In this document: piece after piece, positions 213-23,478 of the stretch
How the letters are laid out: each line of letters opens with the position of its first letter
How positions within the stretch are numbered: position 1 is the first letter of the stretch
UHGV virus genome: UHGV-0039951
Length of the DNA: 25,456 nucleotides
Strand: one strand, 5' to 3'
Origin: a virus
The notes under the pieces: generated by a model
Seen by the model: the letters and a program-made list of their open reading frames with translations, nothing else
The model's database searches: none
Told to the model about the DNA's origin: nothing
Translations under genes and position numbers: made by a program

Positions 213-3158
213 TTAGTGCTTCCCTTCTATTAAGTCTAACCTAGCTTTTATTCTTTCTATTTCTCTGCGCTGCCATGCCGCCTCGATATAGAATAAGAGA
301 TCAGGTCTGACCCCCCATCTAGATCCTGCTGGCGTTATTTCAACGCGCTCAATGATGTCTTCCATTACCATCACTGGATTATCATCCTCATCAACAATGA
401 TGCTCCCGTCATTATCAGTCAGCGGCATTTCCCTTTGGCCAGTAATGACGTCATCATATACTGCGGGATAATCGTCATAGCAAAGAAAGGCATAGCGGCA
501 TGTTGTGCTTTCTTCTTCCATGAGTCCGTGAGAAATAAGAACATCACGAAGTTGCTGCGCGATTACACCATGATGTATCCTCGCCCCTTCTTCCCCCTTT
601 ATAGCGACAGCGTTCAGCCATTTATAAGCGATATACCTGACGTCACCCCAGGCATCCAGCAATGTTTCGTCAGGAGAGACCGGCTCTGTCTTTAATGTTC
701 CGTCACTGGTAACCACAGGATTGGAGCCAAGATAAACTATCGAGAACCTGTTTCCCGGACCACCAAGAGCATTTACATTATCAAGATAAGGTTTAACATC
801 TCCGTTCTCAAAAAGATGTTCGAGTGCGTTATATACCGCGCGACGTGGAGTACTGCTTCCGGAACCATGCAACGTTATCATTGCACCATCTGCTGAAGAC
901 GTTGTTTCACCGCCGCTAACGATTAATCTCTGAGCGGTAACATCATCAGACGGTACTTTCTTCGCAATAATGGCGTAATTACCCTCAAGTTTGACTTCCG
1001 CGCGAACTTGTCCTGATGTACCTGCATGGACAGTCAGTGACTGGACGGCAACATCATCTGTGAAATCAACGGGTACAGGAACCGTCCTCACGCCTGACGT
1101 CGACATAAAAGTAGGAAGCGTTCTGTTAGGAGTGGCTCCGTAGACAAAATCCCTTGAAACAAATTCTTCCTGTTTAATTTTCACCCTGAAACAATACAAA
1201 TCAGCCGGGTGACCATCGTGAACATAAGGATATTTTCTGTTGTTATCCCCTATGCTCCATGGGTTTAGAAAGTCTTCCCCACCGAAAATGTAGTACAGCC
1301 AGTTGTCTTTGATACAAACTGAACCAACACCAACCGCAGAGTTAACTATTCCGCCCTGATAAATCTGATCAGTAACATTAACCCACTCTACATTATCCAG
1401 ACTCCACTCATTGACGTTAACTCTGGTCATAAATGTTCTTGGATAGTTTCCTGCATAACGGTTATCAGGTTCTCCTCCTTCCCACTCACCAAATGCGCGC
1501 TCACTGCCAAAAATAATCAGCTCATCGCCAACTTTGGCAAAAGGAAGGTTTGAGTGATGAACATTATTTGGGAAGCGAAGAGAATTCCATGATGTACCTA
1601 AATCAGAGCTTCTGTGCAATGAACTACCGGGTTGAGTACTTAATGTCCCCCTGGTCGTCAGATACAGAATGCCATCATAATATTTTACACATGGCTCAGA
1701 TGCATTCGCCTCATATTCTGCAGGTATGCGTCTGCGAACAAAGCTACCAGGAGAACCGAAAGCATCAGAGAAATAGAGTATCCCAAGCTCGCGTGGACCA
1801 ATATCACCATTATGGTAGCCAACAGCAAAACTGTTATCGCTAATCGTCGCAAAACTGTGAATCTCAGTAACAGGAGTGCTTCCGTCAACAAAAGAAGGAA
1901 TAGTTCCAAGACTGGTTTTTCTCCATGGTGACGAGTGAAATGATGTACCAAAACTCCAGTATCTACCCTCGTTATTCTGATCCACATCCTGGGTATTTTG
2001 CGTCGTAACTGTAAAAGTATTTTTATCAATAACAGTAGTCACCGTCATATTCCCGGTAACACCTGTAACACCAGAGTTTGAGAAGTTGACAAAATCACCA
2101 GCAAATAATCCGTGATCAGTAATGCGAATATAAGCGACTTGCTGATTTGCTGCTTTCGTTATACCACCATAAACGCGAAGGCTGCGACTCATTGGGCGAT
2201 CCCACAACTCTGCAACCTGCAGTTTATTTCCGCTCACGGTCCGCGTCTCAATTACAGCAAAAAGGCGATTTCTGACAACCCCCATACTCATGCAGTGATA
2301 GTTAACTGTGGGATAGTTTTCATGTAAATCTGTAAGCCATTCCGGCGTTGTCCAGGTCTTCCCGTCATCTCCTGAGCGAACCCATGCAACATGGAGGTTA
2401 TTTACACCATGGCGGTCTCCAGCCATAAAAGGCGCATAGATGACATTGTCATATACAAACGTTTTATCCTGCGTCCAGGCGTTGTACCACGGTGTATCTG
2501 TAATTTTAAATAACTCTCCCTGGATAAAATCTTCAGAAACATAAAAAAGAGGCTGACCCGGTATTCTCTCAAATAAAAAACGAGCATTTTTAAATCGACT
2601 GACATCTGGAAGAGTTGATACTTTAAAAGTAAGCCCTCGCCCATCTATCTTTTCACCACCTGTTGCAACAGAAAGTAATTCTGATAGAGCTGATGTATCA
2701 TCATGAACACCATCACCAATAGCCCCCCAACCTCTTACATCATAACTGTCTCTCCATCTTGCTATCTGAAGTTTTGGGTATTTATTCGCTCCATCTGGGT
2801 CTTCTAATTGCTGCCGTAACTGATCAGGATCATACTTCAGCACATTCGGAAAATAGAACTGCTGTGTACCATACGCATCATAAACAGCCATAGAATGGCC
2901 TTGCACGGTTACGAATTTGGCAATCTGTCCGTTATATACCGGATATCCAGCAGCGTTAATGATGATTGGTTGAGAAACAGGAACGTGAGATCCATCTTCG
3001 TTCTCTACATAAACCTGAATCTGGTTTTCAGGATTTACCGGGTCAGTGTCAATTTTTCCGATATAAATTTTGCCATTGGCTACGGCTTTAAAAGAACGCG
3101 CCATAGTGAAGAGTTGCGAAGGCATACTCACTACAACATTGGCTGTAATGTCTGTCAT
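213..3158 (-). CDS. Tailspike protein: P22 gp9-type head-binding N-terminal domain, sialidase-like (Asp-box) receptor-degrading domain, likely endosialidase; C-terminal intramolecular chaperone (peptidase S74-type) domain
   Basis: 981 aa. The N-terminal ~110 aa ([56 protein letters not shown]...) match the P22 tailspike head-binding domain as I recall it. Two Asp-box motifs ([16 protein letters not shown]) and xRIP motifs (FERIP, RRRIP). The C-terminal ~160 aa begin at S818 in the motif SDGTLK, the pattern of self-cleaving chaperone domains of endosialidases and T5 L-shaped tail fibre. Confidence 0.85.
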
Positions 3159-3290
3159 TTAATTTGCTCCAGATACAAGGAATGGCCGCAGCATGGCTAC
3201 GGTTGGCATTTGTTACATACCGAAACGGTACGATTGTTGATTTGTACAGTGGGTTTTACGATGCCATTCCACCCATTTGGTGAGGCATTG

Positions 3291-3548
3291 ATGATGTACA
3301 GCAAATACGATGAGGCGCAGTTCCACTTGAGGCTTACACACGAGTTGCACGCTAAGATTAAGCAGCGTGCAAAAATGAATAACAGGTCTATCAATTCCGA
3401 AATTGTGGCTACGATGGAAGAATCACTCTCCAAACCATCACCTGTAAGCGGGTATCGTGATGAAGAAGAGAGGCTGGCCTCATTAATCTCGGAACGAGTA
3501 AAAGAAGTTGCGGCTGAAATTCTAAGGAAAGAAAAAACCCGCGATTAA
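3291..3548 (+). CDS. mnt: Mnt-like ribbon-helix-helix (Arc/MetJ superfamily) repressor, 85 aa
   Basis: Only the C-terminal part of ORF 2895..3548 is plausible. ATG at 3291 is preceded by GGTGAGG (3278-3284). The protein (FHLRLTHELHAKIKQRAKMNNRSINSEIVATMEESLSKPSPVSGYRDEEERLA...) closely parallels P22 Mnt (NGRSMNSELLQIVQDALSKPSPVTGYRNDAERLA) as recalled. Confidence 0.7.
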   Translation: MMYSKYDEAQFHLRLTHELHAKIKQRAKMNNRSINSEIVATMEESLSKPSPVSGYRDEEERLASLISERVKEVAAEILRKEKTRD

Positions 3549-4391: not shown

Positions 4392-5030
4392 TCAATGAAT
4401 CCATTCCTCGCCGCGCAGTTTTGCCAGCATTGGCTGAGCGTTCTTTACGACAAAATTGTTGGTATCAAGATTCTTCATTTCACGAAGAAGTGATTTCTTG
4501 GTTTCTTCTGACATGTAGCGAGTCTCATATGCAATATCGTAAATCCTTCCAGAAAGCTCAGAACCAATTTGCTTCATTCCTGGGTAGATGTGTTTGCACA
4601 TTTGTTGACTCTTCTCCATCCACAATTGTAAGTAGCAGAGATTAACCAGCTCTTCGTCAGTAAACTGTTTTGCAATCGGTGAGCATTCTGCCTGCCGATC
4701 CAAAATATCCAGCACCCAGCGGCGGAACTCTTTAGCCTTGGGCGTAGAAGCAAACATCGCCACCAAGTGAGCGCCTCGGAGCGAGTAAACTCTGACCGAT
4801 TTGTTACGTAAGCTATTGTTTATCCCGTTGACCTTCATATTGAGGGTCAATGACATTGAGTCGGAAAACTCGTCAGCATTACGGGCATAAATTTGGCTGA
4901 TGGCATCAGTTTTTTTATAGCCGAGAGCCTTAGCTAGTTCGGTGGAGGTAAACCAGATAGACCCACCCTCTGTTACAGGGTTAAAGGTGAATCCTTGGAA
5001 GTTATAATCTGATTTTGCTATAATGTTCAT
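4392..5030 (-). CDS. ant: Antirepressor with BRO-N-type N-terminal domain (Ant-like), 212 aa from ATG 5030; ORF could extend to 5114
   Basis: The motif YNFQGFTFNPVTEGGSIWFTSTELAKALGY is typical of BRO-N/antirepressor N-termini. ATG at 5030 is preceded by AAGGAA. An alternative start at 5114 also has an SD and would overlap the arc-like stop. Confidence 0.6.
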   Translation of the reverse strand: MNIIAKSDYNFQGFTFNPVTEGGSIWFTSTELAKALGYKKTDAISQIYARNADEFSDSMSLTLNMKVNGINNSLRNKSVRVYSLRGAHLVAMFASTPKAKEFRRWVLDILDRQAECSPIAKQFTDEELVNLCYLQLWMEKSQQMCKHIYPGMKQIGSELSGRIYDIAYETRYMSEETKKSLLREMKNLDTNNFVVKNAQPMLAKLRGEEWIH

Positions 5031-5103
5031 GTTAGTTTCCTTGCATACGGTTACTGACATAGAGGCCCGGTTTGTGTTCGCGCACTGCCGGGCTTCACTG
5101 TTT

Positions 5104-5277
5104 TTACTGGGCATTAGCTCTTTCCTCTCTCAGGCTTTTAGCCAGTCGCTGCACAATCGCAGAGTTGATAGAAATTCCATCCATTTCAGCAACACGTCTA
5201 ATCTCCTCCTTCATTCGCGCTGGCAAACGAAGCTGGAAACTTTGGCTTTTACGACCTGTGTAAAGCACATCTTTCAT
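5104..5277 (-). CDS. arc: Arc-like ribbon-helix-helix repressor, 57 aa
   Basis: ATG at 5277 preceded by GGGAGA. The protein MKDVLYTGRKSQSFQLRLPARMKEEIRRVAEMDGISINSAIVQRLAKSL parallels P22 Arc (QFNLRWPREVLDLVRKVAEENGRSVNSEIYQRVMESF). The ORF-track start at 5292 is a GTG inside the SD region. Confidence 0.65.
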   Translation of the reverse strand: MKDVLYTGRKSQSFQLRLPARMKEEIRRVAEMDGISINSAIVQRLAKSLREERANAQ

Positions 5278-5388: not shown

Positions 5389-5772
5389 ATGAGCAAGTTC
5401 CCTAGTCATGAAATGGATAGGTTCAATATCAGGCTTCCGGCAGGAATGCGGGATGCTATAGCCTTAAGAGCAAAGGAAAACGGCAGATCAATGAATACAG
5501 AACTAGTGTTTATCATTGATGATGCATTGAAGTCTCCGGTGCCTGCTGAGGTTGATAACTCAAGGATTATGAAGATTTACTCAAACCTCTCCGGGAACAG
5601 GCCATCAAACAAAGAAGAGTTTGAGCGGTGGGAGAATGAGCTAGTCAAAGCAATTTTCTACTTACTAGATAGCATCAGTTCTCATTCGCAAATGTACCAA
5701 GCTCTCAGGAGCTTAAGGCAAGATGCATATAAAAATGTTTTTGGCGATGATGCTGAAGACATCCAGTTTTGA
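5389..5772 (+). CDS. Mnt/Arc-type ribbon-helix-helix regulator with ~80-aa C-terminal extension, 127 aa
   Basis: ATG at 5389 preceded by GAGG. The N-terminus ([38 protein letters not shown]) is an RHH motif of Mnt type. Divergent from the arc/ant operon. Confidence 0.7.
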
Positions 5773-5816
5773 AGACCATTTCATCTGGTATCTTGCGTAA
5801 AACTAAGGAGGTTGGT

Positions 5817-6311
5817 GTGTCTGATTCTATGAGTTACGCTGTGCTAGTTGCCGCAACTCTATTTCTGGGGATAGGGTTGCAGATTGCGTGGTTCTTTTTT
5901 TCTAGTTTTATTAAACGTAAAAGAATTGAATCAAGGATATCTGAGATTTCTATTGCTATAGGGAAAAATGCTGAAAATCCAGAGAATGAGGCCTGCGCAC
6001 TGAATTACCTTAAAGAAAAGTTTTCCCCTGAAAAATTTGAAAACAGAATTACTGATGCTCTTGGATTGGTAATATCAGTAATTCATATGCCACTAAGTTT
6101 GCTGATAACAGTGTGGTACTTCGCCATGATCGCCGGAAGAATATTTGGCTTCATGAATATAGAGCCTGTAGTTCTTTGGGTTCCAATGATACTGCAACTG
6201 TTGTTAAGCGTTGCTATCTTTATTTTTTCTGTTTTTATAAAAATTGTCTTTGGAAGATACCCCGGAGAAGCGAAGGGATTTAATAAAGAATTCATAAAAA
6301 CTATAAAATAA
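5817..6311 (+). CDS. Small integral membrane protein (3 predicted TM helices); candidate superinfection-exclusion or lysogenic-conversion protein at the position sieA occupies in P22
   Basis: The ORF-track start at 5769 is TTG. A strong SD (AAGGAGG, 5804-5810) sits 6 nt before GTG 5817. Three hydrophobic segments. AT-rich composition relative to neighbours. Confidence 0.55.
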
Positions 6312-19247: not shown

Positions 19248-19771
19248 TTTCCGAATAGAGTGCTCATCGGTGATGTTTCAATCTGGATTGCGCCGCCGTC
19301 TTTGCCTGTTAGTTCGTGAGAAGCTTGTTCTTTAAACGCCTGAACAGAAACATGCTTACCAAGAAGTTCGAGGTTTTTAACCTTATCAGGCCATTTGATT
19401 TTCTTCAGGAGTGCGGCGCTATCTGCGGATGCCATCTCCACGACATCCATTCCTGATAACGTTGTGCGCCATACCTTAGGCCAGTCTTTAATGGGTTTTA
19501 GCTCACCGTTTTGCAGGAGAATGTCAAGCACATCCATCTGGTCGATTTCAATAAGGCGATTAAGTACATATTCTGCATTAATACCAACAAGATCATTGCG
19601 TTGTGCTTTCAGTTCGGCGATTCTGAGTTGTATGTCAGGTTTTGACATGTTTTCGGACGCAGTACGGTTGGCTGTTTTTGCGCTGTACCCCGCCCGAATA
19701 GCCGCTTGCGTGGCGTTTAAATCGATGAGGTACTCGCGACAGAACATTTCTTGCTTGTCGGTGAGTGCCAT
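19244..19771 (-). CDS. Terminase small subunit (Terminase_2-like N-terminal DNA-binding domain)
   Basis: 175 aa. The N-terminus MALTDKQEMFCREYLIDLNATQAAIRAGYSAKTA is the hallmark of small terminase subunits. The C-terminal tail ...GKDGGAIQIETSPMSTLFGK resembles the Sf6 gp1 C-terminus as recalled. Confidence 0.85.
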   Translation of the reverse strand: MALTDKQEMFCREYLIDLNATQAAIRAGYSAKTANRTASENMSKPDIQLRIAELKAQRNDLVGINAEYVLNRLIEIDQMDVLDILLQNGELKPIKDWPKVWRTTLSGMDVVEMASADSAALLKKIKWPDKVKNLELLGKHVSVQAFKEQASHELTGKDGGAIQIETSPMSTLFGK

Positions 19772-19795
19772 TTAATTACCTTTGGGAGATGCCCA

Positions 19796-20329
19796 ATGAG
19801 TTTAGAAAAATTACTAATCAAAAACAGAAAGTGCGGTTCATGCTCTGTGTGCTGCACTTCGCTACGAATTGAACAGCCAACGTTAAAAAAGTTGGCTGAC
19901 ATCCCATGCCAGCACCTTAAACATCAGGGAGGATGTGCAATTTATGATGAACGCCCTTCTGTTTGCCGCACTTGGTATTGCGGATGGCGAATTCTGGATA
20001 TAGGACCAGAGATGCGTCCTGATCGGAGTGGAGTTCTAATCCGTTATGATGGATCATCACTCTGCTTTCAACCCGTAGACAAAAACCGCGTATCTGCTTT
20101 GATCGAACCAGAGCCTCTGCGAATTTTGGGTGGCCTGATAGATCAAGGTATGAAAGTGGAAATATCGGTTCCAACAAAGGAAGGGTATTGCTCAGCCAAT
20201 ATTAATGTCACTGAGCATATGTCAGAGGTTGTAAAAAGCAGAGAGTATGTAAAAATGCGTTCGGCTCTTTTGGCGCTCATTCAATTCGCATCACGAGCAA
20301 AGACAGATCCAGTAGAACCGCTGGAATGA
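19796..20329 (+). CDS. Cysteine-cluster protein (YkgJ-like CxxCxxCC domain) with ~100-aa C-terminal extension; accessory gene on the opposite strand
   Basis: The ORF-track start at 19751 is TTG. The first ATG at 19796 is preceded by GGGAGA. Motifs CGSCSVCC ... CQHL ... GGCAIYDERPSVCRTWYCGW fit the YkgJ Zn/Fe-binding family as recalled. AT-rich composition. Confidence 0.7.
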   Translation: MSLEKLLIKNRKCGSCSVCCTSLRIEQPTLKKLADIPCQHLKHQGGCAIYDERPSVCRTWYCGWRILDIGPEMRPDRSGVLIRYDGSSLCFQPVDKNRVSALIEPEPLRILGGLIDQGMKVEISVPTKEGYCSANINVTEHMSEVVKSREYVKMRSALLALIQFASRAKTDPVEPLE

Positions 20330-20337
20330 TTATTCAG

Positions 20338-20361
20338 GTCGGGTTTAACACCCGGCTTTTT
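20338..20361 (+). terminator. Weak intrinsic terminator after the Cys-cluster gene
   Basis: 5-bp stem CGGGT/ACCCG with loop TTAAC, followed by GCTTTTT. Confidence 0.35.
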
Positions 20362-20604
20362 GAAATGGTACTCATTGCATCGCTTAATTTTCTTTAAATG
20401 AGAAACGTCCTCTTTCTTAACTGAAGACATTAATTCTTTATCAGTTCGAACATTCATTTTTTTCCATTGCATGATCTTCGCTAATTTATAATTTGCAGTT
20501 CTCCTGCAACGATTTGTTATGTGATAGGATATCTCTCTTCGTTTGGCGGTCCATTACTTCAATATCGTGATCATTAAGGTATAGGCTTTGTAATGCCTAC
20601 ATGG

Positions 20605-21084
20605 TTAAATGATTTGCCAGTCTTCAGCCATCAGGTCGCCAATGGATGGAGCCCATGTAGCAAGGCGGTTCTGTGAGTTTTTCAATACAAGCGTGTCATT
20701 GAAAGTTGGCTCGCCAACATATTCGCCAAAGCCATAACCCAACGCAGACGCTAATTTTTCTCCTTTCACGAGATAAACAAACTGATCTTTCCCATTCCAT
20801 CCTGCCCGCTGCAAACTTTTGCCCTGTTTTAACGCTTCCATGGCAAGGCCGAAACTTAGCCCTGATACCGGACGATAAGCCTTTTCGAATACTTCTTTTG
20901 GACTCCAGCTAACGTAGCCATCAAAGCGATCGGTGTTAGGTTTTCCGCCATCCAGATATTCAACCAGATAGCCTTCGTCCTCGCCGTTTTCTCCGGCAGG
21001 AAGCTGCCAGCCACGAAAATCGTTATATGCCTGTCTCGTCATCGGAAAGGCGTTAATCAGTTTTACGCCAATATGCTGGGTCAT
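20605..21084 (-). CDS. DUF2829-like (Tad2-like fold?) accessory protein with N-terminal extension, 160 aa
   Basis: ATG at 21084 (MTQHIGVKL...). The first 41 codons of ORF 20605..21207 look non-coding. The C-terminal half (FGLAMEALKQGKSLQRAGWNGKDQFVYL ... WAPSIGDLMAEDWQII) matches the DUF2829 pattern as I recall it. Confidence 0.55.
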   Translation of the reverse strand: MTQHIGVKLINAFPMTRQAYNDFRGWQLPAGENGEDEGYLVEYLDGGKPNTDRFDGYVSWSPKEVFEKAYRPVSGLSFGLAMEALKQGKSLQRAGWNGKDQFVYLVKGEKLASALGYGFGEYVGEPTFNDTLVLKNSQNRLATWAPSIGDLMAEDWQII

Positions 21085-22854: not shown

Positions 22855-23478
22855 CTAACGTGTGACAGCATTCAAAATGTTGTCTGCGATTGACTCTTCT
22901 TTGTGGCATTGCACCACCAGAGCGTCATACAGCGGCTTAACAGTGCGTGACCAGGTGGGTTGAGTAAGGTTTGGGATTAGCATCGTTACAGCGCGATATG
23001 CGGCGCTTGCTGGCATCCTTGAATAACCGACGCCTTTGCATCTTCCGCACTCTTTCTCAACAACTCTCCCCCACTGCTCCGTTTTGGCTATATCAACCGC
23101 ACGGCCTGTACCGTGGCAATCTCTGCATCTTGCGCCCGGCGTCGCGGCACTACGGCAATAATCCGCATAAGCGAATGTTGCGAGCACTTGCAGTACCTTT
23201 GTCTTAGTATTTCCTTCAAGCTTTGCCACACCACGGTATTTCCCCGATACCTTGTGTGCAAATTGCATCAGATAGTTGATAGCCTTTTGTTTGTCGTTCT
23301 GGCTGAGTTCATGTTTACCACAGAATGCAGCCATTCCGAATCCGGCTTGTGATTGCGCCATCCCCATAGCAGCCATCACATCAGTACCGGAAAGAGAGTC
23401 AGAAGCCGTAGCCCGTGGTGAGTCGCTCATCATCGGGCTTTTTGGCGAATGAAATTTAGCTACACTTTCGAGTCTCAT
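22855..23478 (-). CDS. Q: Late-gene antiterminator Q (lambda type)
   Basis: 207 aa. N-terminus MRLESVAKFHSPKSPMMSDSPRATASDS and zinc-finger cysteines (CRDCHGTG...CGRCKG) match lambda Q as recalled. Directly upstream of PR'. Confidence 0.9.
   Translation of the reverse strand: MRLESVAKFHSPKSPMMSDSPRATASDSLSGTDVMAAMGMAQSQAGFGMAAFCGKHELSQNDKQKAINYLMQFAHKVSGKYRGVAKLEGNTKTKVLQVLATFAYADYCRSAATPGARCRDCHGTGRAVDIAKTEQWGRVVEKECGRCKGVGYSRMPASAAYRAVTMLIPNLTQPTWSRTVKPLYDALVVQCHKEESIADNILNAVTR

Follow-up and report, generated by a model that had tools for sequence, protein, structure and literature searches.

A cysteine-cluster moron in the pid slot of a P22-like Escherichia coli prophage, and a putative promoter inside the small terminase gene

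Lambda bor and similar morons are genes in reverse orientation between Rz and the terminase genes, transcribed independently and expressed in the lysogen. The CxxCxxCC family of proteins is defined by the motif that gives it its name together with further conserved cysteines, eight in all, and to our knowledge no function is known for YkgJ itself. Here we describe a gene in the virus genome UHGV-0039951 that encodes a cysteine-cluster protein of 177 amino acids (aa), and we call it the Cys-cluster gene. The DNA analysed was a stretch of 25,456 nucleotides (nt), below called the window, which comprises the late region of a P22-like E. coli prophage on the minus strand. The gene lies on the plus strand, head to head with terS, the gene of the small terminase subunit. 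We find it probable, on the evidence given below, that it is a moron in the slot that holds pid in phage P22, that its promoter is situated inside terS, and that its product binds a metal cluster.

The pid gene of P22 and BTP1 is the closest described system. Its promoter is weak, with a -10 box AATCCT 181-186 nt 5' of the ATG and a transcription start 174 nt 5' of the open reading frame (ORF), and it is constitutively active on a plasmid (PMC8835761). In lysogens, pid is one of the five BTP1 prophage genes with the highest expression, at more than 100 transcripts per million (TPM>100; PMC7067206). The function of Pid has been seen in carrier-state cells, not in stable lysogens, and related phages have either no insert or another insert at the pid site (PMC3573128, PMC8835761).

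When the region around the Cys-cluster gene was compared with phage genomes by megablast, only 19701-19773 matched, that is, the first ~72-73 nt of terS, which are ~96% identical to P22, BTP1 and relatives. In BTP1 the match stops at the start of the gene annotated 'pid regulatory protein', whose transcription runs against that of the late genes. With tblastn, residues 1-28 of the window's TerS were found in one frame of the BTP1 locus, where the ATG has become GTG, and residues 37-89 in a second frame, which two stops interrupt. Read in this way, the upstream region of pid, with its promoter and leader, is a decayed terS of the same family as the terS of the window; a terminase origin of the promoter and leader is not mentioned in the pid papers (PMC3573128, PMC8835761). 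Judged from this homology, the Cys-cluster gene occupies the same slot as pid in P22. Both genes begin just past the ~73 conserved nt with which a Terminase_2-type terS starts, both are placed between the lysis and packaging genes with their orientation reversed relative to the late operon, and both have a long leader (predicted here), a ribosome-binding site of their own and a Rho-independent terminator at the 3' end. The cargo differs, being the 86-aa Pid in P22 (phrog_16546) and the 177-aa Cys-cluster protein here, and we rejected the idea of a pid homologue, since the two proteins are unrelated (phrog_9155 vs phrog_16546). Another difference is that in P22 the terS adjacent to pid is dead, only a remnant being left of it, with the real terminase gene at another place, whereas terS is intact in the window, and the predicted leader would therefore be antisense to a working gene.

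The slot is not restricted to these two cargos. We sampled 80 viral contigs from IMG/VR (L112-L191) with a terS 79-100% identical to that of the window, and in 69 of the 80 loci a divergent ORF of at least 35 aa begins 12-30 nt from the terS ATG. The cargos, of which the Cys-cluster gene is one, are 41-192 aa long and belong to at least 20 unrelated families, and some loci have no cargo. The terS ATG is the exact point at which the similarity between loci ends, and all that a cargo brings along is a ribosome-binding site of its own. A private upstream sequence of 12-30 nt leaves no room for a promoter of the cargo's own, and the signals must therefore be sought inside terS; we regard this as the strongest argument for a promoter there. 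E. coli strain 53 has no more than a stub of 11 aa in this position, and CREC-544 and Cronobacter ES2 have other cargos. Ten other slot cargos were searched against Pfam, where only DUF2158 and a weak DUF2441 were found, and against PADLOC, where nothing matched. The cargos include DUF2158 proteins, hydrophobic putative membrane proteins of 83-90 aa, and proteins of 174 and 190 aa that resemble each other.

The anatomy of the Cys-cluster gene, its homology, the selection that acts on it and the recurrent use of the slot are established. The ATG codons of the cargo and of terS are divergent and 25 bp apart from start to start, with 24 nt between them, and their ribosome-binding sites are immediate neighbours, AAAGG of terS on the complement of 19779-19783 and GGGAG of the cargo at 19784-19788. 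This arrangement, which had been pointed out in an earlier reading of the DNA made without database searches (the sequence-only reading), can be read directly from the letters. That reading had let the region begin at 19751, which is a TTG that gives only an extended reading; we rejected it as the start, as all homologues begin with MSLEKLL, which corresponds to the ATG at 19796. The protein consists of an eight-cysteine cluster domain (~aa 10-66), where the codons of the CxxCxxCC motif are found at 19832-19855, and a family-specific alpha/beta domain (~aa 75-177). In an alignment of 36 homologues with 24-94% identity, the cysteines C13, C16, C19, C20, C38, C47, C57 and C62 are either fully invariant or conserved in 90% or more. 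G46, Y50, R53, C62-G63-W64 and R74-P75-D76 are invariant too, and R65 is present in at least 90%. The Cys signature that had been noted from the window alone is thus real and conserved among these homologues. The ratio of nonsynonymous to synonymous substitution rates (dN/dS) against four relatives is 0.09-0.12 in both protein domains. A value of ~0.1 in both halves means that this is a real gene under purifying selection, and it rules out a chance reading frame.

The hairpin 3' of the stop codon (Table 1) resembles an intrinsic terminator, and in relatives a GC-rich hairpin followed by a run of T is kept at the same place with different stem sequences. Because the position is kept while the stems differ, it probably works as a terminator, and in silico the gene has one of its own, as the sequence-only reading had suggested. 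The argument from AT-richness in the same reading is a weak one, as the GC content is 44-48% in the gene and 46-49% in its neighbours, and only the 3' end and its flank (20150-20600) are low, at 36-39%. The gene is an insert between genes that in relatives are adjacent or have something else between them, which is what is expected of a moron. The proposal that it is one agrees with the phages that have the same terS and no insert or another insert, with the terminator, and with the inverted homologues found between the lysis and terminase genes of unrelated lambdoid prophages. Not all copies are intact. One protein cluster (P0012; Shigella flexneri / E. coli) is a truncated form of 105 aa, 100% identical over 59% of the length, and the copy at 5001-5529 of contig L034 is frameshifted and truncated, leaving a 121-aa remnant; the gene thus decays in some lineages.

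The hexamers TTGCGT and GATTCT of the window align under the mapped pid promoter, TTGCTT-17-AATCCT, and place the predicted start of transcription near 19631. A promoter inside terS, as it had been proposed from the abutting start regions, is supported both by the homology between the 5' end of terS and the pid upstream region and by the 69 of 80 cargos that start so close to the terS ATG; an RNA antisense to the 5' end of terS, claimed at the same time, would follow directly from a promoter in that position. A consensus promoter scan did not find any promoter on the plus strand. The best plus-strand candidate in a scan with a position weight matrix, TTGACA-15-TACGGT at 19642, was rejected, as it is not outstanding and its counterpart in P22 lies in a fragment without promoter activity. 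That the Cys-cluster gene is expressed in lysogens is suggested by analogy only, with pid as the model.

The leader is predicted to fold, and it includes a predicted stem-loop that is retained in BTP1 (Table 1). On the minus strand, which is the strand of terS, the same stem-loop reaches -13.7 kcal/mol (z -2.33), and it is more stable as plus-strand RNA because of three G-U pairs. No double changes were found when we looked for covariation in the hairpin, and the sequences are too conserved to show any; Rfam gave no match across 19300-20700. Synonymous sites in terS give a further signal. Among 69 unique relatives of terS, with the terS of the window as reference, codon identity among codons for the same residue is 0.86-0.93 in codons 1-30 (19682-19771) compared with 0.50-0.80 in other windows of the gene. 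This conservation could reflect an element of the leader, or a recombination linker at the module boundary.

Homologues of the Cys-cluster gene were found in at least 40 viral contigs and in several genomes, nearly all of them opposite to both flanks, with a lysis cassette on one side and terminase genes, which are of several unrelated types, on the other. Most of them do not adjoin terS. These relatives have a conserved leader of their own of ~100 nt, and a candidate promoter at a kept position ~100-125 nt upstream of the ATG. In the native leader of L020-L036 there is also a conserved motif ~60-100 nt upstream of the ATG, GTGTTTTTATCAGGATATCCAAAC, with a GGATATCC palindrome, which is absent from the window copy and may be an operator or an RNA element. 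The similarity between the window copy and its relatives starts only ~12 nt before the ATG, and the GGGAG at 19784-19788 marks, as far as the alignments tell, the recombination joint between slot and cargo. L020 is the closest relative, with a protein identity of 95%. There another cargo, of 203 aa, abuts terS and the Cys-cluster gene comes next on the same strand, with its own leader. The simplest explanation of the arrangement in the window would be that the ORF was joined to the slot when DNA was deleted or recombined at the ribosome-binding site. The arrangement is a rare one. Of 5,426 complete E. coli genomes, 5 have the 721 nt around the gene with 100% identity, and in each of these PGAP annotates a 'YkgJ family cysteine cluster protein' adjoining a 'terminase small subunit'.

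By sequence the protein family is large and mostly environmental. A homologue search gave 57 homologous protein clusters, and an exhaustive profile search gave 243 full-length representative clusters at E<=1e-30 (clustered at 50% identity) and 4,806 at E<=1e-10. We found neither a structure nor a described function for any of the family. The Pfam model PF03692 (CxxCxxCC) matches 15 of 36 family members at E<=0.01, with a best E of 2e-4, and the precomputed PF03692 domain is found in none of the 57 protein clusters. PHROG gave a match to phrog_9155 in the N-terminal part only. Matches in BFVD were to uncharacterised phage proteins only, among them cyanophage proteins that share the N-terminal domain. 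There was no match to the defence models of PADLOC-DB v2 at E<=0.1 and no DUF3109 match in Pfam. Modelling and structural search of the full protein, which the sequence-only reading had proposed, succeeded in the first part. AlphaFold2, given the 36-sequence alignment, returned a confident two-part model (mean predicted local distance difference test, pLDDT, 90.6), in which the N-terminal part is rich in cysteines and the alpha/beta domain starts at about residue 75. A structural or fold match was not found in the PDB, no meaningful match came from a profile search against PDB sequences, and the fold searches did not detect any fold that binds S-adenosylmethionine (SAM).

We infer from these comparisons that the Cys-cluster protein is a divergent, sub-threshold branch of the CxxCxxCC/YkgJ superfamily. 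Binding of an iron-sulfur (Fe-S) cluster is its most likely property and, by analogy, a rather probable one; alternatively the metal could be zinc. In FliB, a SAM-dependent flagellin lysine methylase, the related motif CX4CX3CC ligates an oxygen-sensitive [4Fe-4S] cluster (PMC8598068). DpdM, a DUF3109-family preQ1 methyltransferase that acts on phage DNA, has been described as a YkgJ homologue (bioRxiv 10.1101/2023.04.13.536721). An enzymatic or redox role is our working guess, and neither methyl transfer nor defence is given more than a slight chance as the more precise function. Some distant members are chromosomal genes. In two alphaproteobacterial contigs (L011 6001-6552, and L012 5001-5540, whose record is named Caulobacteraceae) the gene overlaps by 4 nt the end of a gene for a fused 1,200-aa hydantoinase A/B, near a gene for an enzyme dependent on thiamine pyrophosphate (TPP), and another chromosomal member is located before a gene for an AMP-binding enzyme. 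The hydantoinase and TPP context may hint at an ancestral cellular role, but it is not kept in other members.

An unannotated ORF of 63 aa converges on the Cys-cluster gene and overlaps its 3' end by 49 nt, so that the terminator hairpin falls inside it. The core of this ORF reads x[ST]DxxLM..L.K....F.F, with motif codons that vary synonymously, and nearly all enterobacterial loci have a homologue that converges on the gene at the same place, over classes of Cys-cluster proteins with 42-100% identity. Other gene callers predict it in 21 protein clusters, and it is paired with the 177-aa gene in 5 of 5 contexts of one widespread cluster, and in Rahnella. The pairing is not obligatory. In the Kosakonia prophage L101 the ORF is present without the Cys-cluster gene and the sequence diverges exactly at its C-terminal tail, and in L103 it is probably also without it. 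The two are thus tightly linked but separable. The dN/dS of the ORF is 0.43-0.48, from few substitutions; Pfam and PHROG had no match to it, and neither did isolated phages searched with tblastn. A functional link between the two genes is possible.

The transcription, metal binding and cellular role in our preferred reading are inferred, and they would fit together as follows. A weak constitutive sigma-70 promoter, antisense within the coding sequence of terS, would start transcription near 19631. The mRNA would have a leader of ~165 nt complementary to the 5' end of terS, followed by the cargo's own ribosome-binding site, the 177-aa ORF and the intrinsic terminator. The gene could then be expressed in a lysogen or in a carrier-state cell, at a time when the late operon is silent, and during lytic growth the convergent late transcription should swamp its transcript. 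As to its origin, an ancestor with its own ~100-nt leader and candidate promoter would have been joined to the slot by deletion or recombination at the ribosome-binding site. The product would be a cytoplasmic protein in which an eight-cysteine metal cluster, most likely Fe-S and otherwise zinc, is joined to a conserved alpha/beta domain, probably a small enzyme or redox module that acts on a target in the host or in an incoming phage and so gives the lysogen an accessory trait. On the whole, the comparative evidence supports what the sequence-only reading had made of the locus.

Several of our own results weigh against this reading and should be set beside it. The matrix score of the predicted promoter, 4.17, is the same as that of the validated Ppid, but both are at background level. 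The promoter hexamers are kept in 72-73 of 73 related loci, and this is confounded with the coding of terS. In P22, promoter activity was lost once the DNA farther than 244 nt upstream of the pid ATG had been taken away (PMC8835761); Ppid therefore needs upstream sequence, and that sequence is poorly conserved in the window. The window copy is also without the native leader and promoter of its relatives and could be poorly expressed. The family assignment is weak. Of the YkgJ-like signature that had been claimed, the motif stands, and PGAP names the protein as a member of the family, but the Pfam match to PF03692 scores 21.1 bits (E 5e-4) where the gathering cut-off is 23, NCBIfam has no match of any kind to the protein, and hhalign against E. 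coli YkgJ gives a 48% probability over 16 columns only (GCAIYxxRPxVCRxWY). The cellular role, finally, is a guess, as the neighbours of the chromosomal homologues vary.

It is conceivable that the gene is a stranded passenger, whose fusion to the slot removed the native promoter and left it essentially silent and decaying. The absence here of the ~100-nt leader and the positionally conserved candidate promoter, the weakness of the predicted promoter in terS and the truncated and frameshifted copies already described are all as one would expect from this, as is the rarity of the arrangement, whose five genomes are 100% identical and thus do not let selection be read within the lineage. We nevertheless consider it unlikely, although it deserves to be taken seriously, because 69 of the 80 related loci hold intact cargo ORFs in the same promoter-less position, which is sensible only if the slot gives expression, and because a homologous platform drives pid at TPM>100 in lysogens (PMC7067206); the ORF, ribosome-binding site and terminator of the window copy are moreover all intact. 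The RNA could instead be the main product, an antisense transcript over the terS start that regulates terS translation or packaging, or excludes related phages, with the ORFs as incidental. The unusually conserved synonymous sites of terS codons 1-30, the ~96% identity of the 73-nt segment in P22 where terS is dead, the plus-strand-biased hairpin that spans the terS start, and the precedent of STnc6030 of BTP1, an antisense RNA in exclusion (PMC7067206), speak for this. P22 has however kept the segment though no terS of that type is left there to regulate, the cargo ORF is under strong purifying selection, the leader hairpin has neither covariation support nor an Rfam match, and the conservation could equally be that of a recombination linker at the module boundary, so that we give this explanation very little credence.

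The other two alternatives concern what the protein does. One is a prophage defence with self-immunity, in which the Cys-cluster protein would block superinfecting phages and the product of the 63-aa ORF would neutralise it in lytic growth. The tight linkage of the two genes over classes with 42-100% identity is in line with this, as is their position on opposite strands, which should lead to expression in opposite phases of the life cycle. The gap between lysis and terminase genes also has counter-defence genes, Tad2-like here and Acb2/Tad1-like in L101, and BstA is a precedent for prophage defence with cognate self-immunity (PMC8585504). Against it speak the lack of a PADLOC match for the Cys-cluster protein, the occurrence of the 63-aa ORF without the Cys-cluster gene (L101, probably L103) and its dN/dS of only 0.43-0.48 from few substitutions, and the many family members that are ordinary chromosomal genes; we therefore think that it is improbable. 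That the protein is an Fe-S-dependent modifying enzyme of the methyltransferase kind, active in lysogenic conversion, would agree with FliB ([4Fe-4S], SAM) and DpdM, which have related Cys clusters and are both methyltransferases, and the conserved C-terminal domain could hold a substrate. But the FliB motif is CX4CX3CC and not CX2CX2CC, NCBIfam and the DUF3109 model of Pfam did not match, and no SAM-binding fold was detected in a protein that is only 177 aa long, which makes this a poor prospect. The boldest interpretation would combine the two levels. The 5' end of a Terminase_2-type terS would be a portable expression platform for hypervariable ORFan cargos in lysogens, and the Cys-cluster protein and its 63-aa partner an undescribed Fe-S-dependent module for defence with self-immunity or for host modification; we offer this as a long shot. 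The preferred reading, a moron that occupies the pid slot, has a promoter inside terS and encodes a metal-cluster protein, is the one we continue with.

The other features of the window are collected in Table 1. Beyond terS come terL, the portal gene and then the head and tail genes, all on the minus strand. The Tad2-like gene, located between Rz and the 63-aa ORF, resembles the Thoeris anti-defence 2 proteins, and the gap between lysis and terminase genes thus also has a likely counter-defence gene; in the Kosakonia prophage the corresponding gap includes a gene for an Acb2/Tad1-hairpin protein (L101 1176-1457). In the AT-rich spacer upstream of the Tad2-like gene, the part 20493-20589 is 76-80% identical to unannotated stretches in ~48-kb E. 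coli plasmids, which may be phage-plasmids, and in a few chromosomes. In the tailspike a P22-type head-binding domain occurs together with endosialidase domains and an S74 chaperone, a make-up that points to a K1-capsule-specific, CUS-3-like prophage of the P22 type, and an immI-type 'ant moron' adjoins it. The Cys-cluster gene had been called the only sizeable plus-strand gene in the late operon. From ~6.3 kb to the right-hand end of the window this holds, but the Arc/Mnt-like genes further to the left are also on the plus strand.

Table 1. Coordinates of features in the 25,456-nt window of UHGV-0039951
Feature	Position	Strand	Basis or remark
Cys-cluster gene, 177 aa + stop	19796-20329	+	PGAP WP_001525208.1, 'YkgJ family cysteine cluster protein'
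Shine-Dalgarno sequence GGGAG, 7 nt 5' of ATG	19784-19788	+	direct sequence reading
Intrinsic-terminator-like hairpin GTCGGGT-TTAAC-ACCCGGC (20338-20356), then T5 (20357-20361)	20338-20361	+	3' of stop
Predicted weak sigma-70 promoter: -35 TTGCGT (19596-19601), 17-nt spacer, -10 GATTCT (19619-19624)	19596-19624	+	alignment with pid promoter
Predicted ~165-nt 5' untranslated region (5'UTR), antisense to terS codons 1-47 and terS ribosome-binding site	19631-19795	+	homology to 174-nt pid 5'UTR; fold z = -2.45
Predicted stem-loop in 5'UTR	19729-19769	+	-19.4 kcal/mol (z -3.44); retained in BTP1
Unannotated 63-aa ORF, convergent, overlapping 3' end of Cys-cluster gene	20281-20472	-	comparative conservation
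terS, small terminase, Terminase_2 family	19771->19244	-	Pfam PF03592 E 3.2e-39; PGAP 'terminase small subunit'
Tad2-like/DUF2829 gene (Thoeris anti-defence 2, PF11195)	21084-20605; ORF reaches 21207 with TTG start	-	E 2.4e-21
Holin, lysozyme and Rz (lysis genes)	22419-21307	-	
Q antiterminator	22855-23478	-	
Endosialidase tailspike	3158-213	-	
Arc/Mnt-like ribbon-helix-helix genes (n=2)	2895-3548, 5389-5772	+	immI-type region
Bro-N/P22_AR_C antirepressor	4392-5114	-	immI-type region
180-aa ORF	5769-6311	+	immI-type region; no Pfam match

The slot has already yielded one unusual host-manipulating protein, Pid, and it can be found from the conserved ~90-nt segment of terS. The at least 20 unrelated cargo families in the 80 contigs are almost wholly uncharacterised and probably expressed in lysogens, and they make up a list of candidates for defence, counter-defence and host modification. 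The comparison also offers an explanation of where the 174-nt leader and the weak promoter of pid come from, namely that they are relics of a terminase gene. As the Cys-cluster family is large (243 representative clusters) and without a described function, any phenotype found for one member would annotate many genes.

Compared with proteins already known, the Cys-cluster protein is closest to the YkgJ/CxxCxxCC family (PF03692, formerly UPF0153), with which it shares the N-terminal CxxCxxCC and the total of eight cysteines, and a stretch of the GCxIYxxRPxxCRxF/W type that aligns with E. coli YkgJ. YkgJ has however only 109 aa, and lacks both the extra alpha/beta domain of ~100 aa and the invariant RPD motif. 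FliB and DpdM have a comparable N-terminal Cys cluster and are the characterised proteins of that kind that we found in the literature, but they are much larger, the Cys spacing of FliB differs, and outside the Cys cluster there is no detectable similarity in sequence or fold; the resemblance serves us as a working analogy and not as a sign of membership. With lambda bor the likeness is that of a reverse-orientation gene in the gap between lysis and packaging genes of a lambdoid late operon, whereas Bor is a lipoprotein with a promoter of its own, and is not known to have a sequence relationship to the Cys-cluster protein or a promoter embedded in terS. Beside the gene itself, which is a new cargo in the already known pid slot, three results stand out: the promoter and leader of pid derive from a terS, the slot is general and its cargos are diverse, and the small partner ORF is conserved.

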